Shown here piece by piece: positions 3,312-34,859 of a stretch of DNA of 64,000 nt; the stretch's first letter is position 1; each line of letters starts with the position of its first letter. Position numbers and translations under genes: made by a program. The notes under the pieces were generated by a model. That model ran no database searches. It worked only from the letters and a program-made list of their open reading frames with translations, and was not told where the DNA came from. This stretch comes from an uncultured Chloroflexia bacterium (GTDB lineage Bacteria; Chloroflexota; Dehalococcoidia; UBA2979): NCBI GenBank assembly GCA_963728205.1, contig CAVSIV010000001.1, positions 1,218,372 through 1,282,371 on the forward strand, given 5' to 3'.

Positions 3312-3376
3312 TGACGAGCGCCCCCGGGGTGAAACCGATGCTCGGTCGTCCCCGCAGATCTGCGAGGATTCTCCGC

Positions 3377-6016
3377 ATGACCGAACACCTCGCTCCATCC
3401 CGCGCTGCCTCCATCCCGGACCGGCCGTCCCTCGACGGCCTGGAGGAGAAGTGGGGCGCGGTATGGAGCGAGCAGGCGACCTACGCCTTCGACCGCGACG
3501 CGGCCCTGGCCGGCCCGCGGGAGGCCGTGTTCTCGATCGACACCCCGCCGCCGACGGCCAGCGGGTCGCTCCACATGGGGCACGTCTTCTCCTACACGCA
3601 CACGGACTGCATGGCCCGGTACAAGCGGATGGCGGGGTTCAACGTCTTCTACCCCATCGGCTGGGACGACAACGGCCTGCCCACCGAGAAGCGGGTCCAG
3701 AACTTCTACGGAGTCCGCGGCGACGCGACGCTGCACTACGACCCTGCGTTCGTGCCGCCGCACCAGGGCGACGCGACGAGCCTCAAGGCCGCCGACCAGC
3801 TGCCGATCAGCCGCCAGAACTTCATCGAGCTGTGCGACGAGCTCACCGTCAAGGACGAGGAGGCCTTCGAGTCCCTCTTCCGGCGGATGGGCTTCAGCCT
3901 GGACTGGTCGATCTCGTACCGGACGATCGACGACCACTCCCGGGCCACCTCGCAGCAGGCGTTCCTGCGCAACCTCGCCCGCGGCGAGGCGTACCAGGCC
4001 GAGGCTCCGGGACTGTGGGACGTGACTTTCCAGACCGCCGTGGCCCAGGCCGAGCTCGAGGCCCGCGACTACCCCGGCCACTACCACCGGGTCGCCTTCC
4101 ACGGTGCCGACGGCAGCCGGTCCACATCGAGACGACCCGCCCCGAGCTCATCCCGAGCTGCGTGGCCCTCATCGCCCACCCGGACGACGAGCGCTACCAG
4201 CCGCTCTTCGGGACGACGGTGTCGACGCCGCTGTTCGGCGTCGAGGTGCCCGTCGTCGCCCACCCGGCGGCCGAGATGGACAAGGGCGCGGGCATCGCCA
4301 TGTGCTGCACCTTCGGGGACCTCACCGACGTCCTGTGGTGGCGCGAGCTGCAGCTGCCCGACCCGGTCGGTCATCACCCGCGCCGGACGCCTGCAGCAGG
4401 AGGTGCCGGGTGGCTGGCCGGACGGCCGGCGAGGGCCTGTATGCCGCGGAGCTGGCCGGGAAGACCCCGTTCACGCGCCCGCGAGGCGGTCGTCGCGGCC
4501 CTGCGCGAGAGCGGCGACCTCGACGGCGAGCCGACGCCGACCCAGCGCAAGGCGAACTTCTACGAGCGGGGCGAGCAAGCCCCTCGAGATCGTCACCTCG
4601 CGGCAGTGGTACATCCGCAACGGCGGGCGCGAGGTCGACCTCAACGCCACGCTCGTCGGCCGGGGCGAGGAGATCGACTTCCACCCACCGTTCATGCGGT
4701 CCCGCTACGCCAACTGGGTCGCGCGGCCTCAACGGTGACTGGCTCGTCTCGCGGCAGCGCTTCTTCGGGGTCGCGATCCCCGTGTGGTACCCGCTCGACG
4801 CCGACGGTGAGCCGGACTACGACCACCCGATCGTCCCCGCCGAGTCGGACCTCCCCGTCGACCCCGTCGCCGAGGCGCCGCACGGCTACGACGAGTCCCA
4901 GCGCGGCGCCCCGGCGGCTTCATCGGCGACCCTGACGTCCTCGACACGTGGGCGACGTCGTCGCTCAGCCCGCAGATCGCCTCCGGCTGGCGCTCGGGGG
5001 CCGACGCCCAGCCCGACCCGGTCTTCGCCAAGGTCTTCCCGATGGACATGCGCCCGCAGGCGCACGACATCATCCGGACCTGGCTCTTCGCGACGGTGGT
5101 GCGCGCCTTCTTGGAGCACGGCGCCGCACCGTGGACGAACGCGGCGATCAGCGGCTGGATCCTCGACCCCGACCGCAAGAAGATGAGCAAGTCCAAGGGC
5201 AACGTCGTCACCCCCGAGGACGTCGTCAAGGAGCACAGCGCCGACGCGGTGCGCTACTGGGCGGCGAGCGGTCGGCTGGGGACGGACGCGGCATACGACA
5301 TCGGGCAGATGAAGGTGGGCCGGCGGCTGGCCATCAAGATCCTCAACGCGAGCAAGTTCGCCCTGTCCTTCGGTGCGGTCGACGGCGACCTCGCCGCAGC
5401 GGTGACCGAACCGCTCGACAGGTCGCTGCTCGCCGGGCTCGCCGACGTCGTCGACCAGGCGACCGAGGGGTTCGAGGCGTGGGACTACACCCGCAGCCTC
5501 GAGGTGACCGAGACCTACTTCTGGACGTTCTGCGACGACTACCTCGAGCTCGTCAAGGACCGGGCCTATGGCGCCCGCGGCGAGGCCGAGGCTGCCAGCG
5601 CCCGGGCCACCCTGCGCATCGCCCTCGGCGTCCTGCTGCGCCTCCTGGCACCGTTCCTCCCCTACGTCACCGAGGAGGTCTGGTCGTGGTGGCACGACGG
5701 CTCGGTCCACCGGACGACATGGCCGACCCGCACCGAGCTCGACGCCGGCCGCGACGGCGACCCGGAGCTGCTCGTCGCGGTCGGTGAGGCCCTGGCGTCG
5801 ATCCGCAAGGCGAAGTCCGAGGCCAAGCTCGGGATGCGCGCCGAGGTGGCCCGGATCACCGTCATGGGTCCGATGCGAGCGCTCGACGATGTCCGCGCCG
5901 CCGAGGCCGACCTGCGGGCCGCGGGCCGGATCATCGGCCCGGTGACGTACACCGAGGCCGACGCCATCGGCTCGGATGACGTCGAGCTCATCCCGGTCGC
6001 CAAGCCGAGCGCCTGA
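3377..6016 (+). CDS. valS: Valine--tRNA ligase (several apparent frameshifts between 4100 and 4950)
   Basis: [55 protein letters not shown]. Confidence 0.95.
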
Positions 6017-6857: not shown

Positions 6858-8138
6858 CTATGCGGAGCGCTTGCGGGCGGAGCGCTTGCGGCCCTCGTCG
6901 TCGCGTCGCACGATCGTCGGCAGGACGTTCTTGAGGACGACGTCCTCGGTGATGACGACCTTGGTGATCTCGTCGTCGCTGGGGACGTCGAACATGACCG
7001 GGAGGAGCACCTCCTCCATGATCGCCCGCAACCCGCGGGCTCCGGTGCCACGCGCCATCGCCTGCTCGGCGACGGCGACGATGGCCTCCCGATCGAACTC
7101 GAGCTCGACGCCGTCGATGGCGAACATCTTCTGGTACTGCTTGACCAGGGCGTTGCGCGGCTCGGTGAGGATCGTCACGAGGGCGTCGGTGTCGAGGGGG
7201 CTGACCGTCGTGATGACCGGAAGCCGTCCGATGAACTCGGGGATGAGCCCGAACTTCATCAGGTCCTCGGGCATGGCGTCGTGGATCGACTCGGCCAGGT
7301 CCTTGGGCGTGTGCAGCTCGGAACCGAAGCCGAGGCCCTTCTTGCCGTTGCGGGACTCGACGAGCTTCTCGAGTCCGGCGAACGCACCGCCGACGATGAA
7401 CAGGACGTTCGTCGTGTCGATCTGGATGAACTCCTGGTGGGGGTGCTTGCGGCCGCCCTGTGGAGGGACCGAGGCCGTCGTCCCCTCGAGGATCTTCAGC
7501 AGGGCCTGCTGGACACCCTCGCCGGAGACGTCACGGGTGATCGAGGGGTTCTCCGACTTCCGGGCGATCTTGTCGACCTCGTCGATGTAGATGATCCCGG
7601 TCTCGGCCTTCTTGACGTCGTAGTCGGCGGCCTGGATGAGCTTGAGGAGGATGTTCTCGACGTCCTCACCGACATAGCCGGCCTCGGTCAGCGCCGTCGC
7701 GTCGGCGATGGCGAAGGGGACGTTGAGCATCTTGGCCAGCGTCTGCGCGAGATAGGTCTTGCCACAGCCGGTCGGGCCGATGAGCAGGATGTTCGACTTG
7801 GCGATCTCGACGTGGTCGGGGTCCTTCTTCGCGCCGCCCTCCCCGGCCTGGATCCGCTTGTAGTGGTTGTAGACGGCGACCGACAACGCCTTCTTTGCGA
7901 CGTCCTGACCGATGACGTACTGCTCGAGGAAGTCGAAGATCTCACGGGGCTTGGGCAGCTCGTCGAGACCCAGCTCACCGGACTCGGACAGCTCCTCCTC
8001 GATGATCTCGTTGCACAGGTCGATGCACTCGTCGCAGATGTAGACCCCGGGCCCGGCGATGAGCTTCTTGACCTGCTTCTGGGACTTGCCGCAGAACGAG
8101 CACTTGAGCAGGTCGCTGCTCTCACCCATGCGTGCCAC
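6858..8138 (-). CDS. clpX: ATP-dependent Clp protease ATP-binding subunit ClpX
   Basis: [26 protein letters not shown] zinc finger, [32 protein letters not shown] loop. Confidence 0.98.
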
Positions 8139-8242
8139 GTGCCCGTCCTTCCATCGGTCGAGAGGGGACAACGACCCCGACGGTACCCGGCGCAGGTGGG
8201 TACCGTTGCCATTGAACGCCTCGGGTCACGGGCGAGTCGCGC

Positions 8243-8261
8243 TTGTCCGCTGAGAGCGCAA
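8243..8261 (-). promoter_or_regulatory. Putative ClgR-binding site upstream of clpX
   Basis: GTCCGC-TGAGA-GCG resembles the ClgR motif GTTCGC-N5-GCG. Confidence 0.45.
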
Positions 8262-8429
8262 TGGGCCGATCCCCCCTGATCGGCGGCCGACCTCGGAGCA
8301 GGGCCGGACGACCCGTGTGGCAGCCATCGGCTCCTCAGGGCACGCGCTAGGATTCGCCCTGCCACGGCATAGGAAGTCGACCCCTTCGGAGAGCCGTGAA
8401 AGGCTCTGTCGAACCCGGAGGTCAGCCAG

Positions 8430-9569
8430 GTGTGCCGCGACGCCGAATCCCAGGGGGAGCCCGCGAGACCGTGGACGGTCTCCATCGTCTCGGGAAGCTT
8501 CGGTGCCGGCCATGACGCCGCCGCCCGGGAGATTCGCGCCTGTCTGGCCGAGCACGGCATCCGGGCGGACATCCATGACATCGTCGACCTCCTTCCGCCA
8601 GGGCTGGGCCGGGCCCTCAAGGCCGTCTACCTCCGGCAGCTGCGATCCGTCCCGGCCTCGTGGGGATGGCTGCTCCGCCGACTGGACGGGACCGGTGAGG
8701 GCGGACCCTCCCGCCTGACCCGGCTCATCGCGACCGTGACCGCAGCGGCGAGCCGCCGCATCATCGACGACGTGGCGCGGGGCGCGGACGCCATCGTCTC
8801 GACCCACCCCCTGGCCAGCCAGTCCCTCGGGCAGCTGCGGCTCCGCGGCCTGGTGACCCAACCCGTCTTCACCTACCTCACCGACCTGTCGGTGCACCGG
8901 CTCTGGGTCCACAACGGCGTGAGCGCCCATCTGGCCCTGCATGACGTGGCGGCGGTGGACGCGAGGGACCACGGGGCCCGGATCGTCCACGTCGTGCGCC
9001 CCGCCGTGGCCAGGAGCCTGCGGGAGGTCGCCCCGATCCATGCCGGGCGGGCCATGCTGCGCGTGCGGTTCGGCCTTCCCGCGACGGGCCGCCTCTGCCT
9101 CATCACCGGCGGGTCGGAGGGGGTGGGCGAGCTGGCCGAGACGGCGGCCGACGTCGCCGCGTGCTCCGACCTGCACCCGGTCGTCCTGTGCGGCCACAAC
9201 GACCATCTGCGCCGACGCCTCGAGCACCGCGCCGACGTGACGGCGTTGGGATGGGTCTGCGACATGCCCTCCCTCTTCGCCGCGGTCGACGTCGTCGTCC
9301 AGAACGCCGGTGGGAGCACGTCGCTCGAGGCACTCGCGGCAGGGCTGCCCGTTGTCAGCTACCGGTGCATCCCCGGGCACGGCGAGACGAATGCCGCCGC
9401 TCTCGACCGAGCCGGACTGGCGCCCTGGGTGCGCCGACCGGCCGACCTCTGCGAGGCGCTCCGGACGGTCACCGACGGGCAGACCCCGACGATGCAGGAC
9501 GCGACGCGCCTGCTCCGCGCCTCCAGATGCGTCGGTGCCACGGTCAGCGCCCTGGTGGAGGCCGGGTGA
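8430..9569 (+). CDS. MGDG-synthase/UgtP-like glycosyltransferase
   Basis: SGSFGAGHDAAA, VSTHPLA, YLTDLSVHRLW, GGSEGVG, VLCGHN, NAGGSTSLEA, IPGHGETNA. Confidence 0.88.
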   Translation: MCRDAESQGEPARPWTVSIVSGSFGAGHDAAAREIRACLAEHGIRADIHDIVDLLPPGLGRALKAVYLRQLRSVPASWGWLLRRLDGTGEGGPSRLTRLIATVTAAASRRIIDDVARGADAIVSTHPLASQSLGQLRLRGLVTQPVFTYLTDLSVHRLWVHNGVSAHLALHDVAAVDARDHGARIVHVVRPAVARSLREVAPIHAGRAMLRVRFGLPATGRLCLITGGSEGVGELAETAADVAACSDLHPVVLCGHNDHLRRRLEHRADVTALGWVCDMPSLFAAVDVVVQNAGGSTSLEALAAGLPVVSYRCIPGHGETNAAALDRAGLAPWVRRPADLCEALRTVTDGQTPTMQDATRLLRASRCVGATVSALVEAG

Positions 9570-10312
9570 GCCGGATGCACCGGGGGCCGGTCACACGGCG
9601 GGCAGGTCGGGCGGCGGCCGGGACGGCGGCCGGCCTCGTGGCGGTCCACCTCGGACCGGCCCTGACCTCGCTCGCCCCGCGTCGCCGAGCGGCATTCCTT
9701 CCGTCCCTCTGTGGCCTGAGCCGGACCGGACACCTGGCCCTCACCTTCGACGACGGGCCCGACCCCCGCGGAACTCCGGCGATCCTCGATGCGCTCGACG
9801 TGCATAGCGTCTCGGCGACCTTCTTCGTCCTCGGCGCGTTCGTCGCTCACCATCGGGACATCGTGGCCGAGACGGCCCGGCGGGGGCACGAGGTCGCCGT
9901 CCACGGATGGGACCACGGCAGCACGGTCGGCAAGGCACCGCGCGTCCTCCGGGACGAGCTGGTCCGGACCGCGCAGGTCGTGGCCGAGGTGACCGGCCAG
10001 GCACCGCGGTGGTACCGGCCGCCGTACGGGGTCGAGACCGCATCCTCGCGTCGGGCGGCCCACGCGGCCGGGTTACGGACCGTGCTGTGGACGACGTGGG
10101 GTGTCGACTGGTCACGCCGGGCGACACCGGCCTCGGTCGTTGCGCGGATCCGCCGCGATGCCCACCCCGGCGGGACGGTCCTCCTCCACGACAGCGACCG
10201 CACCTCGGCACCGGGGTCGTGGCGGGTCACCCGGGCGGCGACCGTGGAGCTGCTCGACGGGTGGTCACGGGACGGCATACCCGTCGGCCCGCTCCGCGAC
10301 CACGGCCTCTGA
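9566..10312 (+). CDS. Polysaccharide deacetylase (NodB/CE4)
   Basis: LTFDDGP, ATFFVLG, HEVAVHGWDH, YRPPYG, VLLHD; overlaps the glycosyltransferase stop (alternative ATG at 9575). Confidence 0.9.
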   Translation: MSRMHRGPVTRRAGRAAAGTAAGLVAVHLGPALTSLAPRRRAAFLPSLCGLSRTGHLALTFDDGPDPRGTPAILDALDVHSVSATFFVLGAFVAHHRDIVAETARRGHEVAVHGWDHGSTVGKAPRVLRDELVRTAQVVAEVTGQAPRWYRPPYGVETASSRRAAHAAGLRTVLWTTWGVDWSRRATPASVVARIRRDAHPGGTVLLHDSDRTSAPGSWRVTRAATVELLDGWSRDGIPVGPLRDHGL

Positions 10313-10331
10313 CGAGGCCGACGCCCGCGGC

Positions 10332-10655
10332 TCAGCCGGCGAAGTGGGCCGAGTGCGAGTCGACGACCTCGACGGTGTAGCCGTCGGACATCGCCTCGAT
10401 GAGCACCGCCGCGTGCTGCGCCGACAGCGCCTCGGACAGGCGGACCCCCAGTCGACCGTCCGGCGCCGCGACGAAGCGCAGCCCGTCCGGCGGCAGGTCG
10501 ATCCCGGCGAACGAGGCGATGCTCCGGGCCCGGTCGCGCAGGTGGGCGACGACCACGCCGGAACACATCCCGTCCTCGGGCAGGCCGAGCGCGTCCCCGA
10601 GGTTGGTCGCCGCGGCGAAGACGTCGCTCGACGCGAACCGGTCCACCGGGCTCAC
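10332..10655 (-). CDS. Hypothetical protein (107 aa), translationally coupled to clpP2
   Basis: GTG overlaps the clpP2 TGA (GTGA) after GAGGAG; protein-like composition VSPVDRFASSDVFAAATNLGDALG... Confidence 0.6.
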   Translation of the reverse strand: MSPVDRFASSDVFAAATNLGDALGLPEDGMCSGVVVAHLRDRARSIASFAGIDLPPDGLRFVAAPDGRLGVRLSEALSAQHAAVLIEAMSDGYTVEVVDSHSAHFAG

Positions 10656-11339: not shown

Positions 11340-11966
11340 TCAGTTCGAGGTCAGGGGGTTCTTGGCACGCGGACCGGCCTGCGTGGACGTCGTGATGACG
11401 TGGTCGACGAAGCCGTACTCCTTGGCCTCCGCGGCGGTGAACCAGCGGTCGCGGTCGGAGTCCTTCTCGATCTGCTCGAGGCTCTGGCCGGTGTGCTCGG
11501 CGATGAGCTGGGCCATCTGCTTCTTGATGTGGAGCAGCTGCTCGGCCTGGATCTTGATGTCGCTGGCGGTGCCCCCGATGCCACCCGACGGCTGATGCAT
11601 CATCACCCGCGCGTGCGGGGTGGCGTAGCGCTTGCCGGGGGTGCCGGCGGACAGGAGGAACTGACCCATCGACGCGGCCATGCCCATCGCGACGGTGGCG
11701 ACGTCGTTGGGCACCCACTGCATCGTGTCGAAGATGGCCATCCCCGCCGTGACCGACCCACCAGGGCTGTTGATGTAGAGCCAGATGTCGGACTCGGGGT
11801 CCTCCGCGGCGAGGAGCAGCATCTGCGCACAGATCGCGTTGGCGTTGTCGTCGCGGACGTCCGAGCCGAGGAAGATGATCCGCTCCTTGAGGAGCCGGTT
11901 GTAGATGTGGTCGTCGAGGCCGAACTGCGGGTTCTCCCCCGCCGCGGTGATCTCGGTGCTGCTCAC
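11340..11966 (-). CDS. clpP1: ATP-dependent Clp protease proteolytic subunit 1
   Basis: [49 protein letters not shown]. Confidence 0.96.
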
Positions 11967-13467: not shown

Positions 13468-14826
13468 TCAGGCCGAGGTGTCGCCCTCGGGCTCGCCCTC
13501 CGCGTCGACGGCGACCTGGTCCTCGGCGGCCTCCGCATCAGCATCTGCGGCGTCGGTGGACGAGGTGACTGCCTCGCTCAGGTCGATCCGCTCACCGGCG
13601 GTGTCGGTGACGACGGCCGTGTCGAGAACGGCCGCGAGCGCCTTGCGCCGGGCCACCTCGGCGACCATGGACGGGACCTGCCCCTGCTCGTCGATGAGCT
13701 GGGCGAACTGGTTCGGGTCCATGCCGTACTGCTGGGCGCTCATGACGAGGTACTCGATGAGCTCGGTCTGCTCGACCGAGACCTCGAACTTCTCGACGAG
13801 GGCATCGAGGAGGAACTGGGCGCGCAGCGCCTGCCGGGTGTTCTCGTCGACCTCGGCCCGGTGCTCGTCGTCCTCGAGGCGGTCCTCGCCCTCGAGGTGG
13901 CTGTGCACCTCGGCCTCGACGATCCCGTCGGGCACCGGGATCTCGGTGGTCGCGAGGAGGTGCTCGAGCACCTTGTCCCGGGCCTGGAGGGCCTGCCCAC
14001 GCTTCTTGGCCTCGGCCACCTGACGGGCAACGTCGGCCCGCAGCTCGGGGAGGGTGTCGAACTCCGACGCGAGCTGGGCGAAGTCGTCGTCGAGAGCGGG
14101 GAGCTCACGGACCTTGACCGAGCCGACGGTCACGGTGCAGTCGGCGTTCGTGCCCTCGTGGTCACCACCGGCGAGCGGGGCGACGAACTCCTTGGTCTCG
14201 CCGGCGCTCATCCCGACGAGGGCGTCGTCCATCCCCTCGAGCATGGTCCCGGAGCCGACCTCGTAGGAGACGCCGGAGACGGAGTCGATCTCGTCGCCGT
14301 CGATCGCCGCCGAGAGGTCGATGGAGACGAAGTCGCCGGTCTCGACGGGACGCTCGACTCCGGTCAGGGTCCCGAACCGCTCGCGCAGGTCGGTGAGCCG
14401 CTCGTCGATGTCCTCGTCCGTCGCCTCGACGGCGTCGACCGTCACGGCGATGCCAGCGGTCTCGGGGAGGGTGATCTCGGGTCGGACGTCGGTCTCGACG
14501 GTGAACTCGAGCTCCTGGCCGTCCTCGAGCGGAACGGCCGTGACGTCGACCTCGGGGTTGCCGATGGCCCGGATGCCCTCGGTGTCGACGGCCTGGCCGA
14601 AGAATCGCGGCAGGGCGGCGTTGACGGCCTCCTGGACGACAGCCCCGCGACCGACGCGCTGGTCGATGATGCGGGTCGGCACGTGGCCCCGGCGGAAGCC
14701 CGGGACCTGGATCTGCCCCCCGATCGTCGTGTACGCCGCGTCGAGGTCGGCCTTGAGCTCGTCGAACGGCACCTCGACATGGAGCTTGACCCGGGTCGGG
14801 CTGAGGGTCTCGACGGCACTCTTCAC
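13468..14826 (-). CDS. tig: Trigger factor
   Basis: VKSAVETLSPTRVKL, PGFRRG ribosome-binding motif, FKBP-like GDFVSID, LDDDFAQLASEFDT. Confidence 0.96.
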   Translation of the reverse strand: MKSAVETLSPTRVKLHVEVPFDELKADLDAAYTTIGGQIQVPGFRRGHVPTRIIDQRVGRGAVVQEAVNAALPRFFGQAVDTEGIRAIGNPEVDVTAVPLEDGQELEFTVETDVRPEITLPETAGIAVTVDAVEATDEDIDERLTDLRERFGTLTGVERPVETGDFVSIDLSAAIDGDEIDSVSGVSYEVGSGTMLEGMDDALVGMSAGETKEFVAPLAGGDHEGTNADCTVTVGSVKVRELPALDDDFAQLASEFDTLPELRADVARQVAEAKKRGQALQARDKVLEHLLATTEIPVPDGIVEAEVHSHLEGEDRLEDDEHRAEVDENTRQALRAQFLLDALVEKFEVSVEQTELIEYLVMSAQQYGMDPNQFAQLIDEQGQVPSMVAEVARRKALAAVLDTAVVTDTAGERIDLSEAVTSSTDAADADAEAAEDQVAVDAEGEPEGDTSA

Positions 14827-15010
14827 TTCAGGCACTCCGAACTGGCGGTTGGGGTCGGTCTGGGGTTCGGTCCGGCCACCGCGACCCGGGCCGGCCGGTG
14901 ACGAGGGTCCCGGCGCGGCCGGCATACCGGACCTGGGCAGGCACCGGCGCGCTGGCGTGCGACGCGGGAACCATGCTAGCGGGCGGGCCGCCCGAGGCCG
15001 AATCCCTCGT

Positions 15011-15445
15011 CTACCTCGCCGTCGGAGCCCAGCCGCCGTCCAGCCGGGCGGGCGGGTGGGTGCGCCGAGAACGGGCCCGCCCCCATGCACCCACGATGAG
15101 GAGGACGACCGCGGCGAGCGGCCAGATGCCGACGAAGCCGAGGTCGATCCAGCGGGTCACCTCGTTGATCCGACCCTCTCCGGGCCGGGCCGGGTCGACG
15201 AAGACCGTCGTCGGGACGGCAGTGGTGTCGGTGACACTCTGCTGGGGGTTGACGATCGTGTACTGGATGCCGTCCACCGAGTAGTAGACGAGACCGCGCA
15301 CCGATGAGCCCTGGATCTGCCGTCCGGTGAGGAAGACCGTGTCCACGGGCGACTGGAGCTCGAGCAGCAGGGCGAGGACTCCGACGACGAGAAGGACCAG
15401 AGCACCGATGCCGACCGGTCGAGAGACCATGCCTCGGACGACCAT
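15011..15445 (-). CDS. Small membrane protein with two TM segments flanking a beta-rich loop
   Basis: GIGALVLLVVGVLALLL...VYYSVDG...VFVDPARP...LGFVGIWPLAAVVLLIV; start uncertain. Confidence 0.55.
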   Translation of the reverse strand: MVVRGMVSRPVGIGALVLLVVGVLALLLELQSPVDTVFLTGRQIQGSSVRGLVYYSVDGIQYTIVNPQQSVTDTTAVPTTVFVDPARPGEGRINEVTRWIDLGFVGIWPLAAVVLLIVGAWGRARSRRTHPPARLDGGWAPTAR

Positions 15446-15537
15446 GCCTCGGACGATACGACGCGCCGCTGGGAGCACCGCGGTGGCGTCGGTCGCCGGT
15501 CGAGGTCGGGGGACGGGCCGGCGGTACGGTGTCCGGT

Positions 15538-16080
15538 ATGCCGTCCCCCGAGCGTCCGACCGGCACCGTGACCCCGCTGCAGTCCTTCCGGGTCACCATC
15601 GGGTCGGTCATGTCCGGGCTCGTCATCATGGCCGTGGTGTTCACCGCCGTCCTCGGCACGGCGGTGCCGCCGCTGTGGTGGCTGGTCGTCCCCCTCGTGC
15701 TGGGCGTCCTGGCCGAGAGCGCCATCACGACGGCCGGCTATCGGGTGGTGCCGATCCCGCCCGGCGCCGCACCCGAGGAGGCCGCCGGTCCGGCCAGGAT
15801 CCGCTTCCAGCGAAGCGCCGTGGTCCGGATGGCCATCGGTGAGTCCGTCGCGATCGTCTCGATCGTCCTGTCCTTCCTCAGCCGGCCGCAGAGTGTCCTC
15901 ACCTACCTCGTCGGGACGGTGGTCTCACTGGTCCTCCTGGGGCGGCACGTCTGGCCCAGCGCGGGGATGATCGACCGGACCGAGCGAGCCCTCGACGCGT
16001 CGGGCGGTCGATCGCATCTCGCCGACGTGCTCGCCGGTCGCGAGCCTGGGTCGAGCGCCCCGGGCTACGCGCAGCTCTAG
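15538..16080 (+). CDS. Hypothetical membrane protein
   Basis: About four hydrophobic segments; host-like codon usage. Confidence 0.65.
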   Translation: MPSPERPTGTVTPLQSFRVTIGSVMSGLVIMAVVFTAVLGTAVPPLWWLVVPLVLGVLAESAITTAGYRVVPIPPGAAPEEAAGPARIRFQRSAVVRMAIGESVAIVSIVLSFLSRPQSVLTYLVGTVVSLVLLGRHVWPSAGMIDRTERALDASGGRSHLADVLAGREPGSSAPGYAQL

Positions 16081-16098
16081 CCCGTCGCCGGCCGAGGG

Positions 16099-16354
16099 TC
16101 AGGCCGACTGCTCTGGGTCGAGGCGCTCGAGGATCCACGAACGGACGAGCGTCGAGGCCGGCAGGCCGGCGGCTCGTCGGCGACCTGCTGGACCCGGGCG
16201 TACTCCTCCGAGCTGGAGCCGAACCGGGTCACGCGCGGGAGCGGTCACGGTTCGGCCTGGTGAACCGAGCGCCCTCCGGATAGGGGTGGTCCTTAGTCTG
16301 CTCGGACTCCCGACGGAGCCGGTCGGCCAGCTCAGGGTCGATCGTCTTGGCCAT
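16099..16354 (-). CDS. Putative RHH/CopG-like antitoxin (frameshifted)
   Basis: MAKTIDPELADRLRRESEQTKD..RPNR continues across shifts to EEYARVQQVA..GLPASTLVRSWILERL; overlaps the upstream toxin-like gene. Confidence 0.6.
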
Positions 16355-16661
16355 CGTCACTCCCTTCTGTGTAATCGGGAAGGTCGTGCCCCGAGGCCGG
16401 CCAGGCGTTGAGGCCATGGAGGTCGCCGTCGAGGTCGCGGTAGGCGGTGACGACGAGAACCCGTCCGGCGCTCGTCGACTCTCCGATGAAACGTGAAGCC
16501 CCGATCCGGGACTTGGCATCTGGCTCGAACGCCACCAGGTCCGGGTCCGACAGCACCTCCTCGGTCCACTCGGGTTGGATGTTGATTCCGCCGGGGCAGC
16601 GGTCTGCTCTGCTTCGGATGTAGGTCGAGGAGACTTCATCCCAGTAGATCGGACCTGGCAT
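16332..16661 (-). CDS. Putative BrnT/RelE-fold toxin
   Basis: 109 aa; IYWDE...EEVLSDP...SRFIGES..GRVLVV..YR...NAWPA resembles BrnT-like toxins. Confidence 0.55.
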   Translation of the reverse strand: MPGPIYWDEVSSTYIRSRADRCPGGINIQPEWTEEVLSDPDLVAFEPDAKSRIGASRFIGESTSAGRVLVVTAYRDLDGDLHGLNAWPASGHDLPDYTEGSDDGQDDRP

Positions 16662-16738
16662 GGCTCACCGAATTACGCCGTAGTACGTCCAGGAGGTTGG
16701 ACGCGTGCGCCGTAGCTCCGGAGTCCGTTACCGCACGG

Positions 16739-16775
16739 ATCGCGGCATGGTCGGACGCCAGCCCCGACAACGGTC
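16739..16775 (+). repeat. Island boundary repeat, copy A
   Basis: atcgcggcatggtcggacgccagccccgacaacggtc. Confidence 0.8.
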
Positions 16776-16801
16776 GGGTGGAAGATCGGATGCGGTCGCG
16801 C

Positions 16802-17146
16802 TCAGCCGGGCGCCGGGCGCTCGGCGTCGACCGGGAGGCCCGCGATGCCGGTTGCGGTCACCAGGCGCAGTCGCTGGACGTCGACGCTCGTGACGTAGTC
16901 GTCAACGCGGTCGAGGAAGTACCGGGTCGTGGTCTGCGACTCGTGCTCGGCCAGGGCATCTTCGCTCGTGTAGAGCTCGTAGAAGATGCGGACGTCGGGC
17001 TCACCAGCGAGCGCGTGCACCGCGTAGGCCAACGTGCGGGGCTCGTGGGCGGCGATCCCCGCCACCGTGTCGCGCATCAACGCGTCGAACGCCTCGGCTC
17101 GCCCGGGCCTGAGCGCGAATCGGACCACCAAGCCGAACTGGGACAT
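16802..17146 (-). CDS. Antibiotic biosynthesis monooxygenase (ABM) family protein
   Basis: VVRFALRPG..EAF..EPRTLAY...FYELY...ALAEH; RBS GAGGAG. Confidence 0.85.
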   Translation of the reverse strand: MSQFGLVVRFALRPGRAEAFDALMRDTVAGIAAHEPRTLAYAVHALAGEPDVRIFYELYTSEDALAEHESQTTTRYFLDRVDDYVTSVDVQRLRLVTATGIAGLPVDAERPAPG

Positions 17147-17403
17147 CTGCTCCTCCTCGGTACGAGCAGACCCTCCCACGTCGGGGACTCCGGCACGGTG
17201 AGAATGGAGGCCGCCGCGCCGTCCAGGTCGGCACCCCGCGAGGCCGAACATCCCCGGCGAGGACCGAGGTCGGCAGTCGCGCGGCGCCGCCCCTCAGGTT
17301 CGGCACGCCGAAGCGCACCTACGTTCAGCCGTCCAAGGCAACTCCCGCCTAGCGCCGGGTCAACCCTGCGCGAGTGGAGATCAGCGCTGAGAACACCCGC
17401 GCG

Positions 17404-17442
17404 ATCCGCGGCATAAGAGGACGCTAGCGCCGACAGCGGCAT
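17404..17442 (+). repeat. Island boundary repeat, copy B
   Basis: atccgcggcataagaggacgctagcgccgacagcggcat; a further partial copy gacagcggcatttgggacg at 17471-17489. Confidence 0.8.
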
Positions 17443-17811
17443 GACCGTGCAACGGTATGCCGCCATGCCGGACAGCGGCATTTGGGACGTTCGGTGCGTC
17501 CGCAACCGATGCCCGATCTACCGTCCGGGGCGGGGCCTCGGTCCTATCGTGGTTCCGGACTCGACTCCCAGCAACGCGGCGCCAGCGGTTCGGCGCCGCG
17601 AGAGGTCGATGACGAGCCGAGGGCCCGGAGGTGGGGACGGCCGGCTGGAACACTCGGGTCGTGGACACGAGCGAGTGCCAAGACTGCGGCCACAGCCTCT
17701 CGGCTCACGGACCTGTCGCGTGCGCGGTCTGCTCGGCGGAGGAAAGTCGCGGAGAGCGAGCCATCGGCCACGTCTGTGGACTGACCCCCATCGATCCGAC
17801 CCGTCCAAGTG

Positions 17812-18045
17812 ATGAGCCGCGACGAGCAGACGGTTGCCATGTTCCTGTCCTTGCAGCGGCAATGGGGCCTGAATCTCGTGGTCATGGTTGCCTGTGCCGC
17901 CGTGTCGGGCTGCTCTACCTCTTCGATCCCGACCTCTCGTCCACCTGGTCTCGCGCAGCAGCGATCATCGTCCTTGTTGCTGGTCTTCTCGTCCTCACTG
18001 TGGCGACCGCTCGCTCACTCATCGAGCAGGGTGCAACATCAGTAG
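17812..18045 (+). pseudogene. Small membrane protein, frameshifted or fragmentary
   Basis: QWGLNLVVMVACAAV followed in another frame by GLLYLFD..AAAIIVLVAGLLVLTVA. Confidence 0.35.
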
Positions 18046-18080
18046 TGACACACCTCAACACTCGATTAGGGGTGAGTGTG

Positions 18081-18758
18081 ATGAAGGTGCCCACCAAAGG
18101 ACGGGCGTTGCTGAGCAGCGTGGTCGTCGTGCTGGCTGTGGCCACGGGGTGCTCGGCCGAGCCTGGAGTTTCCGATGACTACCAACGCCTCGAGCAGCAA
18201 TATTTCGAAGCGCAGGAGGAGGTCGCAGGGCTCGAGCAGGCGCTCGCCGCTTCGGCGGGCGTCGAGTTCACCGCCCTGCCCAAGAACGTCGTCAAGGTCT
18301 ACGGCGAGTACGCAGGATGTCTACCGAGGGTGCATGGGGAGGAGTCCCCAGACGGGATCAAGGTCTACAGCGGCGGGTTCTCGTGCCCGGGTGTGAGGTA
18401 CTCGGATCCACGCCTCAACGGTGATGTGGAGTTGACGCTGATCGGGGCGCGCTATGTCGACTACCTGCCGAACTCGAACATCCCCGAGACCGCGCGCTTC
18501 GAGTTCACCGCCGTGCTGACCACCAATGACGGTGAGCGGTGGAGTGGCGATGGATTCGGTGTCGACCTGTACGACGGCGAAGGAAAGATCCACACCGTGT
18601 ACTACAACGAGCTCGCGGGCAAGGGCAAGTATGACGGGTTGGTCTATCGCGAGTGGGCGATGCAGCAGCCCAGGGTGTACGACGGCACCGCGACAACGCT
18701 CTACGACGGGTATTTCGCCTCGGGGTGGATCGAGCAGATCCCGTCGACAGGTTCCTGA
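18081..18758 (+). CDS. Hypothetical lipoprotein
   Basis: Signal peptide ending in lipobox-like VATGC, short coiled coil YQRLEQQYFEAQEEVAGLEQAL, then a beta-rich domain. Confidence 0.7.
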   Translation: MKVPTKGRALLSSVVVVLAVATGCSAEPGVSDDYQRLEQQYFEAQEEVAGLEQALAASAGVEFTALPKNVVKVYGEYAGCLPRVHGEESPDGIKVYSGGFSCPGVRYSDPRLNGDVELTLIGARYVDYLPNSNIPETARFEFTAVLTTNDGERWSGDGFGVDLYDGEGKIHTVYYNELAGKGKYDGLVYREWAMQQPRVYDGTATTLYDGYFASGWIEQIPSTGS

Positions 18759-18866
18759 CCCCAGATCCGGGTGGCGCGTGGATAGCAGGGCCGGTGATGT
18801 CACCGTCGGCGACCCCGGGGCAAGGTCCGGTTCGGAGTGCGGGCTGCCGGTGGAGGTGGGGTCTGG

Positions 18867-19060
18867 TGGTGGTCGCGCTTCCCACCCCTGAGGATCTGGC
18901 CGAGATCCTGGCCTGTTCCCCGCAGGTGGTGGACACGGCCGCGGGGCCGATGGAGTATGCCGAGGCAGGGGAGGGCTCACCGTTGCTGTTCACCCACGGC
19001 GACATGAGCGCGCACATCGATTTGGCTTCGGCCTGCGGTCTGGGTGCAGCAAAGGCCTGA
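18867..19060 (+). pseudogene. Alpha/beta hydrolase N-terminal fragment
   Basis: VVDTAAGPMEYAEAGEGSPLLFTHG then an early stop. Confidence 0.5.
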
Positions 19061-19344
19061 GCGTGGTCGATGTGAGGACAGTGCAGCCGCGGCATCCGTG
19101 GGAGCTCGCCTTACCCTCGTATCGACTCATCTCCGGAGCGCTGGCGCTTGGAAGGCCTCTGGGTGTGCGGTCTGTTCTCGAACGTCGAGGTGGTGACGAC
19201 GAGGAGACTGTCGTGGCTCGCTACAACGATCTGATGGCGGTCATTCAGGGAGTCCTCCTGGGTCACGGACGATGTCCTAGCCCGCCTGCGCACGCTGGAA
19301 GCCGAAGATCCAGCGGCGGGCCGCCGCTGTGGGAGTCGGTGGTG

Positions 19345-19671
19345 ATGAGTAGCGGGGCCGCTGACGATGAACGGGTGATCGAGGCCTCACGCCGAGTTTG
19401 GGAAACCCTCGGACCGAACGCCTACGCAGTGCAGTTCAAGGCTCGCCCGCAGACCTGGCGAGGGTTTGTCGAGGGCCGCGGTTGGCTGGTGCTTGGCATG
19501 GCTGGCCTCGTGGTGATCGCGATCTTGGCGGATGAGGTCAACCAGCGATGGGGCTGGTACTGGCTCTTGGTGTTCCCTTGTTCATCGCGTGGCCGGCGCT
19601 GCTCTACATCGCCTTCAGGCGCAGGTATCGCGATCTTGAAGCGCGGGGTGGCAAGGAGCTTCCGCACCTGA
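19345..19671 (+). CDS. Small two-TM hypothetical protein (frameshifted)
   Basis: MSSGAADDERVIEASRRVW..WLVLGMAGLVVIAIL..WGWYWLLVFP continuing as LFIAWPALLYIAFRRRY. Confidence 0.5.
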   Translation: MSSGAADDERVIEASRRVWETLGPNAYAVQFKARPQTWRGFVEGRGWLVLGMAGLVVIAILADEVNQRWGWYWLLVFPCSSRGRRCSTSPSGAGIAILKRGVARSFRT

Positions 19672-19683
19672 ACCCCCTGACTC

Positions 19684-19702
19684 ATCGCGGCATGGTCGGA
19701 CG
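19684..19702 (+). repeat. Island boundary repeat, copy C (left half only)
   Basis: atcgcggcatggtcggacg, identical to the start of copy A, joined directly to antitoxin sequence. Confidence 0.75.
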
Positions 19703-19797
19703 AGGCGCACCGCCTGTCGGTGCTTGTGGCGGCCGCTGACCGCGCGAGTGACGACATGGAGTTCGTCGAGGCCGTCTCCGACGACTGGCCCGAATGA
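19699..19797 (+). pseudogene. MazE-like (DUF3018-type) antitoxin, C-terminal remnant
   Basis: DEAHRLSVLVAAADRASDDMEFVEAVSDDWPE*; ATGA overlap with the toxin; in-frame stop upstream at 19678 and no N-terminal half. Confidence 0.6.
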
Positions 19798-20120
19798 GAC
19801 GCGGCGACATCATCACCGTGGCCGATGGCGTCTATGCGAACAAGCCTCGGCCGGCGTTGATCGTCCAGGACGACCGGTTCGACGCGAGCGCGTCGCTGAC
19901 CGTGTGCCCCTTCACGAGCACGGAGACCGACGCGCCGCTGCTGCGGGTGCCGGTCACCGCTGACGAAGGGAACGGCTTGGACCAGGACGGCTTCTTGATG
20001 GTCGACAAGATCACCACGGTGCGCAGGGGCAATGCCCACGCAGTGATCGGGAGGCTGGAGGCCGCGACGTTGGTCGAGTTCGAGAGGCGCCTCCTCGTCT
20101 TCCTCGGCTTCGGCGACTGA
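19794..20120 (+). CDS. PemK/MazF family toxin
   Basis: MRRGDI...KPRPALIVQDD...TVCPFTS...LMVDKITTV...IGRL. Confidence 0.9.
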   Translation: MRRGDIITVADGVYANKPRPALIVQDDRFDASASLTVCPFTSTETDAPLLRVPVTADEGNGLDQDGFLMVDKITTVRRGNAHAVIGRLEAATLVEFERRLLVFLGFGD

Positions 20121-20129
20121 ACGCACCGC

Positions 20130-20166
20130 TCCGCGGCATGGTCGGACGCTAGCGCCGACAGCGGCA
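20130..20166 (+). repeat. Island boundary repeat, copy D
   Basis: tccgcggcatggtcggacgctagcgccgacagcggca, about 10 bp after the mazF stop. Confidence 0.8.
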
Positions 20167-20168
20167 AA

Positions 20169-20425
20169 TCAGGAGCGAGTCAGGCGCTGGCTTCCCCATC
20201 CGTCGTAGTCGCGGCCTGGCCACTGCTGGGCGACGCCTTCGACGAACACCCGAGCATCGCGTACCGCTTCTGGGCTCGTAACCGCGCCGTGCCGCTCAGC
20301 GACGACGACCCACTCGGGTCCACCTGTCGCAAGAACTCTGCAACGTCCTGCAGGTCCCACCCCGCAGCCTCCACGACCTCAGCTGCTCCGCGCGCGCCCG
20401 CCTCGTCGGCGAAGGACAGGTAGTG
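20169..20425 (-). pseudogene. RraB-like (ribonuclease E inhibitor) domain fragment
   Basis: HYLSFADEAGARGAAEVVEAAGW..WVVVAER..DYDGW; 5' end missing and one frameshift. Confidence 0.55.
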
Positions 20426-20554
20426 CGCGCGGCGCGGATCGACCGGCACGCCACCGATGATCGGTCCCGGGTCCTCGCCGACCGCCTCGACGCCCTCGTC
20501 CGCGAGCTGAGCCGAGGCATGGAGCAGCGGCTGGCACCGAACCCCTATCGCTGA
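20423..20554 (+). mobile_element. Degenerate tyrosine integrase C-terminal remnant next to the tRNA-Gly 3' end
   Basis: VRAARIDRHATDDRSRVLADRLDALV resembles the recalled actinobacterial integrase tail RAALIYQHAT..RDR.IADRLDAL. Confidence 0.55.
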
Positions 20555-20636
20555 CAGATCGCACGCGACGGGCTCAGGCGGTGGGTGGCGGAGAGGCATC
20601 AGGGGTCCGGCAGGCCTCTGACCTGCGGTGCTGCGA

Positions 20637-20710
20637 TGGAGCGGGTGACGGGAATCGAACCCGCATGGCCAGCTTGGAAGGCTGGGGCTCTGCCATTGAG
20701 CTACACCCGC
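20637..20710 (-). tRNA. tRNA-Gly(TCC)
   Basis: gcgggtgtagctcaatggcagagc-cccagccTTCCaagctgg-..gggttcgattccc..cgctCCA cloverleaf with encoded CCA. Confidence 0.97.
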
Positions 20711-20830
20711 GTGCTCCCCTCCACCGGCGACCGTCGTCGGCGGGCCGAGAGCAGGCGCTAGCCTAGTGGCCGCTGTCGCGGGACCCGAAATCCTCCCCGC
20801 ACCGGGCGTATGCCGGGTGTCCGGGCGCCG

Positions 20831-20907
20831 CGGGGTATGGCGCAGTTTGGTAGCGCGTCCGCTTTGGGAGCGGAAGGCCGCCGGTTCAAATCCGGCTACC
20901 CCGACCA
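20831..20907 (+). tRNA. tRNA-Pro(TGG)
   Basis: cggggtatggcgcagtttggtagcgcg-tccgcttTGGgagcgga-..ggttcaaatcc..ccccgaCCA. Confidence 0.97.
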
Positions 20908-20949
20908 TCCCTGCCCACCCGCGCCCGCGCCCTCCGCGCGGAGGAACGC

Positions 20950-21614
20950 TTACGGACGCAGGACGGCCCGCAGATCGGTGATCGCCCGCCCGGCCGCGAT
21001 GCCCTTGGCCTCGAAGCCGTCGACCGGCCGCCAGCCGGGACGCTCCCCTCGTGGACCTCCCACCGCTGGTGCGCAGCCAGCGCGTGCCGGACGTGCGCGG
21101 CATACGGCGCATGGTCGGTGGCGACGAGCAGCCGGCCGCCCGGTTCGAGACGGGAGGCGAGCAGGTCGAGGGTGTGCTGCTGGATGAAGCGTCGCTTGGC
21201 GTGCCGCTTCTTCGGCCACGGGTCGGGGAAGAACAGGTGGACGGCCGCCAGGGACGCCGCCGGCAGCCGCTCCCGGAGCAGCGGCAGCGCGTCGTCGGGC
21301 TCCACCCACAGGTTCGCCACGCGGGCGGCCTCGGCGGCCGCGAGCATCCGGGCCACCCCGGGGACGTGGACCTCGACGGCGAGCAGATCGACGTGAGGGT
21401 GGGCGGCGGCATACGCGATGGCGGCCGCCCCATGCCCGGACCCGATCTCGAGGACGACGGGGGCCACCCGGCCGAACGCCTGTTCTGGGTGCAGCACCCC
21501 GGCCGGGATCCGGCGAGCGGGCAACAGGGTCGCGATCCGCTCCTCGGTCAGCGCAGAGGTGCGCCAGCGCGGGGTGAAGGTGCGCACGCCGGCGTGGGTG
21601 GCGAGGTCGGACAT
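20950..21614 (-). CDS. trmB: tRNA (guanine-N7)-methyltransferase (frameshift near 21045)
   Basis: LEIGSGHG, AVEVHVPG, FFPDPWPKKRHAKRR, ATDHAPYA, FEAKG. Confidence 0.92.
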
Positions 21615-33450: not shown

Positions 33451-33505
33451 GGGGCCAGTGTGTCAGGGCCGGGTGAAACCGTCGGGTCGCGCCTAGGGTG
33501 GCGGT

Positions 33506-34859
33506 GTGCCCCTCGACCCGCGCACCGCAGCCCACCTCGACCATCTGCTCGCCACCGCCCAGCAGCGACGGGCGCGCGCCCTCACTCGTCGCCGGCCTCG
33601 TCCGGAGCGGCTCGCTCGTCTGGCACGGGGCGGCGGGCACCCTCGACGGGCGGGCCCCGGGCACCCCGGCCGACGACGACACCCAGTACCGGATGGGGTC
33701 GATCACCAAGACGTTCGTCGGCGTCTGCGTCATGCGGCTGCGCGACGCCGGGCGGCTGTCCCTCACCGACCGGCTCGAGGAGCACGTGCCCGGGTCGTCC
33801 CTCGGGGAGGCCACGATCGAGCAGCTCCTCTCGCACGCGGGCGGGGTCCAGGCGGAGACGCCCGGGCCATGGTGGGAGCGCACCCCCGGCGGCGACTGGG
33901 ACGCCCTCGTCGCCTCGCCTGTCGTCCAGCGGTTCCGCGGCGGTCGGCGGTTCCACTACAGCAACGTCGGGTATGCCGCCCTCGGCCGGCTTCTCGAGGT
34001 CCGGCACGGGCGAGCGTGGTACGACGTCGTCCGGCCGAGCTGCTCGAGCCGCTCGGGATGACCCGGACGACGACCCGACCGACCGGGCAGGGCGGCAGCA
34101 GGACGGGCGGTGCATCCGTTCGCCGACGTCCTGATGCCCGAGCCGGAGCACGATGCCGGCGCGATGGCCCCCGCCGGGCAGCTGTGGAGCACCGTGCGCG
34201 ACCTGGCCCGATGGGCGGCGTTCCTCGGCGGGGACACCGCCGGGCTGCTCGCCACCGACACCCTCGCCGAGATGGTCGAGCCGCACCACGTCGTCGACGA
34301 ACCCGGTCAGCCGTGGACGACGGCCCATGGCCTGGGCTGGCAGGTCTGGAACGTCGGCGGGATCCGGTATGCCGGTCACGGCGGGTCGATGCCCGGCTTC
34401 CTCGCCGCGCTCCGGGTCCGGCTGGACTCCGGCGACGGGGTCGTCACGATGCGCAACGCAACAGCGGCGCCGCCGACCCGGCACTCGCCGAGGACCTTCT
34501 CACGCGCTCGGCGACCTCGAGCCCCGCCGGTCGCGCCGTGGTCCGCCGACGGCGACCCGGGCCTGCTCGACGTCCTCGGCATCTGGCACTGGGGGCCGAC
34601 GGCGGAGATCGCTCGCCTCGAGGCCGGACACCTCGTGCTCGGCGAGCCGGGCGTGCGACGCGGGTCCCGGTTCGCCCGGGTCGGGGCCGACGAGTGGGTC
34701 GGCCTCGACGGCTACTACACCGGGGAGCCACTGCGGGTCGTCCGGCATCGCGACGGCACGGTGTCGCACCTCGACCTCGCATCGTTCCGGTTCACCCGGA
34801 CGCCGTACGACCCGTCGGCCGACATCCCCGGCGGGGTCGACGAGGACGGCTGGCGCTAG
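33506..34859 (+). CDS. Serine hydrolase, beta-lactamase/PBP-like (frameshifted)
   Basis: GSITK (SxxK), LLSHAGG, YSN, HGGSMPG. Confidence 0.85.

Follow-up and report, generated by a model that had tools for sequence, protein, structure and literature searches.

Gene Content of the Locus

The 64,000-nt stretch of DNA analyzed here (hereafter the window; positions 1,218,372–1,282,371 of contig CAVSIV010000001.1, assembly GCA_963728205.1) has the order valS, clpX, clpP2, clpP1, tig, patch, tRNA-Gly, tRNA-Pro, trmB, PP2C phosphatase, rpiB, and pepN, and apart from the patch between tig and tRNA-Gly it is a core chromosomal stretch. The patch contains several copies of a short imperfect palindrome, a 34-nt site that consists of a 28-nt unit, GCGGCATGGTCGGACGCYAGCKCCGACA, followed by GCGGCA, and this repeat is the subject of the present work. 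The site is conserved nearly letter for letter across several Actinomycetota orders, in which it is sporadic and low-copy. Adjacent copies are co-oriented, single small genes lie between them, and likeness to the DNA of other organisms starts and ends at the repeat. The repeat is previously undescribed and marks module seams in actinobacterial accessory DNA; a literature search found no earlier account of it, with supplements, which may list actinobacterial matches resembling attC sites or attC clusters that have no integron integrase (CALIN), lying outside that search.

The features of the patch are given below by window position and strand (ORF, open reading frame; TM, transmembrane; bits refer to the covariance model introduced in the next section).

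15100–20636, no strand: whole patch between tig and tRNA-Gly; G+C 61–67% versus ~72% in the flanks
16229–16661, minus: possible toxin-antitoxin pair, a 109-aa BrnT-like ORF (16332–16661) and a 41-aa ORF (16229–16354)
16739–16775, plus: repeat copy 1, diverged; 6 substitutions relative to copy 4; center CA and C at the variable arm position; 51.0 bits
16805–17146, minus: gene for an ABM-family monooxygenase, the only one that copies 1 and 2 enclose; PF03992, E 2.8e-07
17404–17441, plus: repeat copy 2; left arm GGTC changed to AAGA, right 22 nt equal to copy 4; 48.7 bits
17434–17482, plus: second type of unit, a double hairpin made of GCGGCAT words; folded as DNA at −19.1 kcal/mol, z −5.4, and equaled in stability by 0 of 200 shuffles
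18081–18758, plus: ORF whose product has a lipoprotein-like signal; Pfam and NCBIfam give no family above the cutoff
19063–19671, plus: two-TM ORF; no Pfam or NCBIfam family
19684–19702, plus: left half of the repeat (copy 3), cut near the palindrome center and fused to the middle of an antitoxin gene
19720–19797, plus: antitoxin gene remnant, ~25 C-terminal codons in frame; its stop overlaps the mazF start
19794–20120, plus: mazF/pemK toxin gene; PF02452, E 3.7e-18
20127–20166, plus: repeat copy 4, consensus form, with a short left extension CGCTCC; 62.4 bits
20169–20560, minus: ORF previously called RraB-like, in two frames (frameshift or sequencing error); no Pfam or NCBIfam match at E up to 5
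20637–20710, minus: tRNA-Gly (TCC), its 3′ end facing the patch

An earlier note on this DNA had named several of these genes. Two of the names, ABM and MazF (PemK/MazF), are the only ones in the patch with family support; the RraB-like protein, the lipoprotein, and the membrane proteins find none in Pfam or NCBIfam. Of the two toxin-antitoxin loci counted in that note, mazF is borne out by its PF02452 match, and the other takes its BrnT-like label solely from a language-model lead (BrnT_toxin/DUF4258 clusters, score 0.91). The 109-aa ORF has no Pfam match, and the 41-aa ORF beside it reaches RHH_3 at E 0.19. The 25-aa antitoxin remnant has no family match, and the break in its gene, as read from the sequence, coincides with the end of the half repeat (19702/19703). 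We found no integrase-family match among the patch ORFs in Pfam or NCBIfam, and the integrase remnant that had been placed at the tRNA end was not found.

Copies of the Repeat in the Window

The patch holds three full copies of the 34-nt site (16742–16775, 17408–17441, and 20133–20166) and one left half (19684–19702), all on the plus strand. These are the direct-orientation copies that had been noticed at 16739, 17404, 19684, and 20130, and they are recovered by exact matches to parts of the consensus, the full ones also by a covariance model. The 36-nt consensus matches exactly at 20131–20166, with 0 matches in 100 shuffles. Its right 22-mer is exact at 17420 and 20145, where 0 matches are expected, and the left 17-mer occurs unchanged at 16741, 19686, and 20132. 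With up to three mismatches the 17-mer gains a single match (15435, minus strand); such loose matches are expected by chance (mean 1.95), so that it is the exact ones that carry the signal. A repeat search returned a 40-nt family at 16736–16775, 17402–17441, and 20127–20166 and an exact 19-nt pair, 16739–16757 and 19684–19702. The repeat is real and non-random.

We built the covariance model (R1) from the copies and ran it on the window, its own assembly, and the other loci described below. The half copy scores 11.8 bits (E 4.6). No further copy was found in the window or anywhere in the 4,125,032-base assembly, either with up to eight substitutions or with the covariance model, in agreement with the earlier impression that the repeat is confined to the patch. 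Two weak partial copies proposed at 17471 and 19087 go undetected by the model. The first is part of the different, adjoining double hairpin at 17434–17482; the second lies inside the two-TM ORF and inside a stretch, beginning at 19060, in which other contigs match the window.

The copies lie close to gene ends, as had been claimed, with measured distances of 26 nt from the ABM stop (copy 1, which is also 80 nt upstream of the start of the BrnT-like ORF), 12 nt after the stop of ORF 19063–19671, 10 nt after the mazF stop, and 2 nt from the stop of ORF 20169–20360 (minus strand). The rarity of the word CTAG likewise holds; it occurs in this genome at 0.11 of expectation.

Unit Structure and Sequence Conservation

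The repeat unit is 28 nt long, and the trailing GCGGCA of the earlier consensus is the start of a next unit. Exact tandem units occur at locus L002 (two), at L027 (three and two), and at L028. The 28-nt unit is often adjoined on either side by other short units that also start with GCGGCA(T), including a type of 24–25 nt, which we call unit B, at L027, L028, and L045. Twenty-five copies from the window, nine other genomes, and metagenome contigs align without gaps at a mean column identity of 94%, and the 34 nt of copy 4 are identical in L003, L008, L027, and L028. Positions 8–11 and 28–34, which the search pattern left free, are conserved as well, and the flanks of the copies share no sequence beyond a few bases. 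Two unit positions vary freely, one at the center (position 18, C/T/A) and one in the right arm (position 22, G/T/C), and all four of the four common combinations occur. The palindrome takes the form of 6-bp inverted arms, GTCGGA and TCCGAC, around a 7-bp center that holds one of the variable positions; the predicted fold has a stem of 5 + 2 bp with one bulged base and a weak outer pairing of the GCGGC words. One copy departs from the rest in having AC instead of GT at unit positions 9–10 (L009:4001–4034, the same as L041:19872–19905), as does the window at 17434–17461, and it may be a hybrid of the two unit types.

This mosaic of 28-nt tandems, unit B, and the double hairpin at 17434–17482, all starting with GCGGCA(T), is the first of several observations that would fit another origin for the repeat, namely as a palindromic unit like the repetitive extragenic palindromes (REPs) and the bacterial interspersed mosaic elements (BIMEs) built from them. 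The repeat would then be one of a family of hairpin units with a GCGGCATG linker, abundant in some uncultured actinobacterial lineage, where it would follow genes either as selfish DNA or as a hairpin that forms an RNA end or terminator, and imported passively with foreign DNA; the seams would have arisen from homologous recombination, slippage, or breakage at short repeats and hairpins, with no enzyme recognizing the site. The resemblance extends to a short, imperfect palindrome whose 5′ foot carries a fixed word, a position after genes, and the occurrence of mosaics and tandems, as in REPs, BIMEs, and the REP pairs (REPINs) associated with REP-associated tyrosine transposases (RAYTs). The assembly also contains other tandem hairpin families with GGCGGCATG and seven Y1_Tnp-like matches, and a hairpin-provoked deletion would fit the way copy 3 is broken near the hairpin tip. 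We consider this origin possible but doubtful, and it is the main rival of the reading favored below.

Distribution among Genomes and Metagenomes

A pattern search for the site, with six positions left free, of a species collection returned nine further genomes with 11 loci (three of which overlap in one genome). The carriers are Ornithinicoccus halotolerans, Tessaracoccus massiliensis, a Pseudonocardiales metagenome-assembled genome (MAG), a Jatrophihabitans MAG, and five MAGs titled uncultured Actinomycetota. The same search of metagenomes gave 14 loci. Three of these (L029, L032, and L034) are chance matches inside Mur-ligase and NMT1-type genes with no 3′ GCGGCA tail and are left out of all counts, and L022 and L025 are one sequence (97.5%), leaving ~10 contigs. 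Five other genomes searched with up to three mismatches contain three, two (in tandem), one, one, and one copies; with the covariance model, L004 gains a second copy and genome G044 gains one on another contig. No searched genome has more than four.

The site was not found in 40 listed relatives of the window's genome or in 60 other genomes of the genus of G041, and viral contigs gave 0 matches to it. Short matches in phages were rejected as chance-level, as were those in plasmids (best E 0.07–0.2), one of which was inspected and lies inside a coding sequence of a Mycolicibacterium plasmid. The absence from listed relatives is weak evidence, since these may not be kin of the contig: the DNA of 12 relatives matches the window only at tRNAs, and the window's trigger factor is 29–34% identical to that of genomes listed in the same genus or family. 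The bin is rated 5.6% contaminated, and either it may be mixed or the listed relatives may not be kin of contig C1, on which the window lies. The same contig has two trigger-factor genes (window 13468–15090 and C1:907074–908078), which are 31% identical to each other.

Copies cluster in the window (four), in G041 (three), in L004 (two), and in L027 (two arrays), and adjacent copies are co-oriented in 7/7 pairs (window three, G041 two, L004 one, L027 one). REPs, by comparison, usually number more than 100 copies per genome and alternate in orientation within BIMEs (Nunvar et al., 2010); here there are 1–4 co-oriented copies. In its own 4.1-Mb assembly the repeat is not dispersed as REPs are. 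All copies lie within one 3.4-kb patch and none in core intergenic DNA, in keeping with the earlier expectation that this is not an ordinary scattered REP. The RAREFAN preprint describes REPIN–RAYT systems as mostly vertically inherited, with a single RAYT, whereas the present repeat is sporadic across orders and four of five carriers have no Y1 enzyme (PF01797; 0 matches in G041–G044). The Y1 point also weighs on any link to RAYTs or IS200-type elements, which we rejected: none of the seven Y1_Tnp matches in the window's own genome is flanked by the repeat, and the other carriers lack Y1.

Genes beside the Repeat

The loci share essentially nothing outside the repeat. A Pfam scan of 91 neighboring ORFs identified glyoxalase, GNAT, DinB/MST, cupin, TetR, MarR, isochorismatase, and Imm5-like families, PIN with a FitA-like antitoxin, and YoeB. 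Near the repeats, glyoxalase is found in five ORFs, GNAT in three, cupin in two, and DinB/MST in two locus views of one gene; toxin-antitoxin genes are near in four loci (window, L004, L012, and L041). Genes of these kinds are what cassettes typically carry. The mobile genes comprise transposases of the IS256, IS21, ISL3, and IS110 families, one tyrosine integrase (L007), and one TrwC relaxase (L008). As insertion sequences (ISs) of four families adjoin the repeat, none is its owner.

The cassette layout described in the earlier note recurs at two of these loci, with co-oriented copies enclosing single small genes. Between two copies lie the ABM gene in the window (copy spacing 666 nt), a DinB/MST gene in L042 (648 nt; the next gene, a glyoxalase, likewise ends 36 nt after a copy), and an ORF for a 91-aa acidic protein in L027. 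ORFs were called crudely from third-position G+C, which misses small genes; by these calls, opposite-strand genes end within 40 nt of the 3′ side of the repeat at 8/27 sites and same-strand genes within 40 nt of its 5′ side at 5/27, counts that fit a REP-like unit sitting after genes. Flanks read by eye add 3′-side stops at window copy 4, L003, L021, L022/L025, and the second L027 array. The site might instead be the end of an IS, an idea (abutted TG...CA ends with a 6-bp spacer) that we abandoned because in L042 and L045 the ends of IS21 are unlike the repeat and the genome contains no further copy of any piece of the patch.

The form of the palindrome and the position of the patch raise another explanation, that the copies are attachment (att) sites left by small elements integrated serially beside tRNA-Gly (accretion), whose integrases have since been lost and of which the genes between copies would be the remains. 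A tyrosine integrase would have used each copy as its core site, with the GTCGGA/TCCGAC arms around a 7-bp overlap, and the 7-bp center with one variable position accords with this, as do the abutment of the patch on the 3′ end of tRNA-Gly, a repeat in L012 ~550 nt from a 49-nt tRNA-Gly 3′ fragment (no whole tRNA is present), and tyrosine integrases within 1.4–7 kb of the repeat in L007 and L043. Yet the repeat is not a copy of the tRNA-Gly 3′ end, the two sharing just 7 nt, which lie in the extension to the left of copy 4. The modules, at 0.4–0.7 kb, are far below the size of integrative elements; the L007 and L043 integrases are unrelated (26% identical), which also led us to reject a shared integrase as the enzyme of the repeat, and most loci have none; and the site in L043 is internal, adjoining a relaxase gene, rather than at an element end. 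We regard this explanation as improbable.

Slightly less probable still is that the repeat is a binding site of a mobile-DNA protein (an operator, partition, or transfer site, oriT- or clt-like, or a toxin-antitoxin operator) with no role in joining. Direct GCGGCA words around a palindrome and strict conservation of letters fit protein recognition, the repeat in L043 lies ~350 nt upstream of a TrwC-type relaxase gene, and toxin-antitoxin genes are near in the four loci named above. On the other hand, a relaxase is present in only 1 of ~20 loci, the repeats follow gene ends beside unrelated genes rather than lying in promoters, and the loss of likeness to other DNA at the repeat is left unexplained by binding alone.

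Several of these loci have further features of their own. In L012 (4036–4791), the repeat is adjoined by a YoeB toxin gene without its first ~20 profile positions, an Lsr2-type DNA-binding segment, and the tRNA-Gly fragment; the locus looks like a decayed tRNA-Gly island. In L042 (Tessaracoccus), ~3–5 kb past the array, there are genes for an ABC-F type ATPase and an rRNA adenine dimethylase-family protein (7353–9161 and 9597–10454), with tRNA-Ala beyond them at 11423–11496. The G044 locus (L043:8596–13572; L044:4234–5850) has a phage-type integrase followed by two or three adjacent tyrosine recombinase genes resembling a recombinase trio, then the TrwC relaxase gene downstream and, farther on, an ORF of the thiol-activated cytolysin family.

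Breakpoints in Metagenome Contigs

Logan contigs from four runs (X1, X2, X5, and X9), belonging to four studies, were compared with window positions 15000–21000. The window's own organism is in no run (best share of sampled words, 0.11), and the contigs represent other organisms. The earlier note had proposed a comparison of breakpoints, and in these contigs likeness to the window indeed starts and stops at the repeat. The ABM segment, 16784–17398, is found at ~98–99% likeness as contigs of 608–689 nt in runs from four studies; the repeats are where these contigs end in X2 (608 nt, 16793–17398), X5 (617 nt, 16784–17398), and X9 (689 nt, 16742–17414), and X1 holds the segment in part. Two X5 contigs run left of 16771 into letters that are not those of the window, starting again with CCGCGGCA and continuing with a different unit.

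Two further X5 contigs bear on the half copy. The first matches the two-TM gene over 19060–19676, continues for eight letters (similar to eight in the window), and then has a full repeat, which the aligner placed on copy 4; X2 contigs also match the two-TM gene from 19060 on. A full repeat after the two-TM gene indicates that the half copy of the window is a truncated full site. The second, of 1243 nt, matches the window at 86% over 19701–20127 only, that is, between the half copy and copy 4, and continues 165 and 651 nt into unlike sequence on the two sides. A related mazEF, longer on its antitoxin side and free of these repeats, thus exists in other DNA. The joint after the two-TM gene and the run-on mazEF contig are not assembly effects.

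Other contigs show the same stretches with differing flanks: five in X5 before 20133, and many in X9 around the 17436–17480 piece, with loose ends at 17436, 17470, 17479, and 17481. Such variety of flanks would also be expected of a REP-like unit. An X9 joint from 17443 to 20132, together with joints that go back, is most simply explained by tandem units, and we do not read these as deletions. Summed depth in X5 was 138.6 for ABM and 58.7 for the two-TM gene, with near none for 17613–19019, and was not counted, as it can neither rank genes nor show absence.

Comparison with Known Systems

In layout the repeat is most like the attC sites of CALIN-type orphan arrays, yet it departs from them in core motifs, length, mode of conservation, and integrase. 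Both involve co-oriented sites that directly follow small accessory genes, unrelated and mostly without promoters, toxin-antitoxin pairs among them; both sites are imperfect palindromes, with an unpaired base that in the repeat is a predicted one; and both occur in arrays with no integrase nearby, often with ISs. attC sites are longer and are conserved in structure rather than in sequence. The repeat, at 28–34 nt, has 94% conservation of letters and no IntI was found with it; the inverted core RYYYAAC/GTTRRRY is absent from all 25 copies, which have direct GCGGCA flanks and no AAC/GTT pair. The distinction from attC drawn in the earlier note therefore stands. Cury et al. (2016; PMC4889954) put CALIN with neighboring ISs at 38% and half of CALIN in genomes without IntI, and record complete integrons as lacking in Actinobacteria.

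With the pdif modules the repeat shares small modules bounded by one short site. On Acinetobacter plasmids these modules, which include toxin-antitoxin pairs and turn up in different contexts, are Xer-dependent: host enzymes act in trans on the pdif sites, which are similar to the host dif and stand inverted to each other on the two sides of a module. The copies studied here are direct and G+C-rich. No credible dif-like site was found by pattern search in the assembly, which is 89% complete.

The Vibrio cholerae repeat (VCR) of the super-integron offers a parallel in history, having first been described as a REP-like repeat and later recognized as a recombination site. VCRs are ~120 nt long, and more than 100 lie in one array beside intI. 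Like them, the present repeat is very uniform and lies between small genes of no known function and toxin-antitoxin genes; no large array or enzyme is seen for it. The ends of IS200/IS605 elements are similar bulged hairpins in direct orientation, recognized on one strand, and the direct rather than inverted orientation is shared. Here, by contrast, there is no tnpA or tnpB between or beside copies, Y1 is missing from four of the five carriers, and one hairpin is common to neighboring modules instead of one per element end.

Proposed Recombination at the Repeat

The reading that we favor, though we would put it at a little under an even chance, is that, as the simplest mechanism, site-specific recombination takes place at the repeat through an enzyme acting in trans and that the window's array is orphaned and decaying and belongs to a new cassette-junction or recombination site. 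The 34-bp site would mark the junctions of small, independently traveling gene modules in horizontally acquired Actinomycetota DNA and would be both the recognition and the crossover site of a sequence-specific recombinase. If two co-oriented copies crossed over, the intervening gene would come out as a circle carrying one copy, and the circle could recombine with any resident copy, so that insertion would build co-oriented arrays of unrelated small genes. In the window such an array would be in decay, with copy 1 drifted, copy 2 without its left arm, copy 3 broken, and copy 4 intact; the break of copy 3 near the palindrome center might reflect an aberrant event at the crossover point or the hairpin-provoked deletion already mentioned. 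The foreign G+C of the patch and its location at a tRNA 3′ end are counted as support for the cassette reading. Joining of DNA at the repeat is supported by the contig sequences; site specificity, circle formation, and the existence of an enzyme are inferred.

Several points weigh against recombination by a dedicated enzyme. No enzyme is common to the repeat-bearing loci, so that a capture "system" is postulated and not demonstrated. The intact linked recombinase that the earlier note proposed to look for did not emerge: PF00589 has four matches in the window's genome and 0 on contig C1 (the extra domain specific to IntI was not searched), and tyrosine recombinases are nearby in only L007 and L043 of ~20 loci, with the low mutual identity noted above. 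The lack of Y1 transposases in most carriers belongs here as well. No gene family was seen twice at the same position relative to the repeat, and no circle or empty site was observed. The ends of contigs at the repeat are in part an assembly effect, since short-read contigs end at any repeat.

The fold adds to these points. The stability of the hairpin is ordinary for its G+C relative to shuffles (DNA z +0.16 and −0.33; RNA z +0.9 to −1.9), and the two variable positions are without clear covariation. We rejected covariation as support for the fold: the G/T/C position shifts the bulged base, but the variants in L009 and L033 break pairs uncompensated. A terminator scan of 15000–21000 for the hairpin-plus-T-run type found one site, at 16561, and none at the repeats, though a terminator consisting of the hairpin alone may escape it, and a scan of 15000–21500 with Rfam 15 scored the two tRNAs, with no match at the repeats at E up to 5. 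Ordinary stability, no T-run terminator, and no Rfam match together imply that the letters, not the fold, are conserved, which also speaks against a REP-like RNA-end hairpin. Finally, the tandem unit runs at L002, L027, and L028 and the mixing with GCGGCAT-type units at L027, L028, L045, and 17434–17482 look more like satellites or BIMEs than a recombination site, and most of the same facts could be accounted for by recombination, homologous or hairpin-provoked, at a REP-like unit.

A stronger proposal goes beyond recombination in trans and makes the repeat an undescribed Actinomycetota cassette-capture site, a shorter, sequence-conserved counterpart of attC with outer GCGGC words, a small internal loop, and a bulged inner stem. 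We hold this to be rather unlikely, if conceivable. Large arrays with their recombinase would reside in uncultured soil or peat actinobacteria, whose short-read assemblies would shatter into one-cassette contigs, and leakage of cassettes into other orders would produce small orphan arrays such as that in the window. The gene-capture idea in the earlier note gains support from the recurrence of the site at unrelated accessory genes across orders, and the linked enzyme is what it lacks.

Either outcome gives a handle on how Actinobacteria shuffle small accessory and toxin-antitoxin genes, a poorly understood matter, and the site can be used for model searches, for finding an enzyme by association, and for trials in a cultured carrier. 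A true recombination site would amount to a second, independent invention of cassette capture; a REP-like unit would be unusual in its horizontal spread at low copy number.

Other Repeats and Genes of the Assembly

The tandem hairpin families mentioned above are built around GGCGGCATG or CATGCCGCC and lie at C6:821787–822065, C6:653150–653327, C6:642310–642425, C6:713860–713948, and C4:31283–31387. They share GCGGCATG with the studied repeat and are otherwise different; one has a 27-nt unit in at least 10 tandem copies. A separate tandem array of ~114-nt units (C6:175300–175960) adjoins an IS200-like Y1 transposase ORF (C6:175961–176416). Weak Y1_Tnp (PF01797) matches in frames of 190–310 aa with an HVH-type motif occur at C1:1108762–1109613, C6:1380587–1381429, C6:509472–510404, C6:783685–784539, and C6:1622686–1623264; these frames may be RAYT-like domesticated transposases, and none is flanked by the studied repeat.

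Some genes of the window are split into adjacent frames, namely valS (3311–4735 and 5042–6013), a gene with a beta-lactamase fold (33498–34058 and 34110–34856), and the ORF at 20169–20560. The splits may come from frameshift errors in a long-read assembly, and the genes may not be true pseudogenes.

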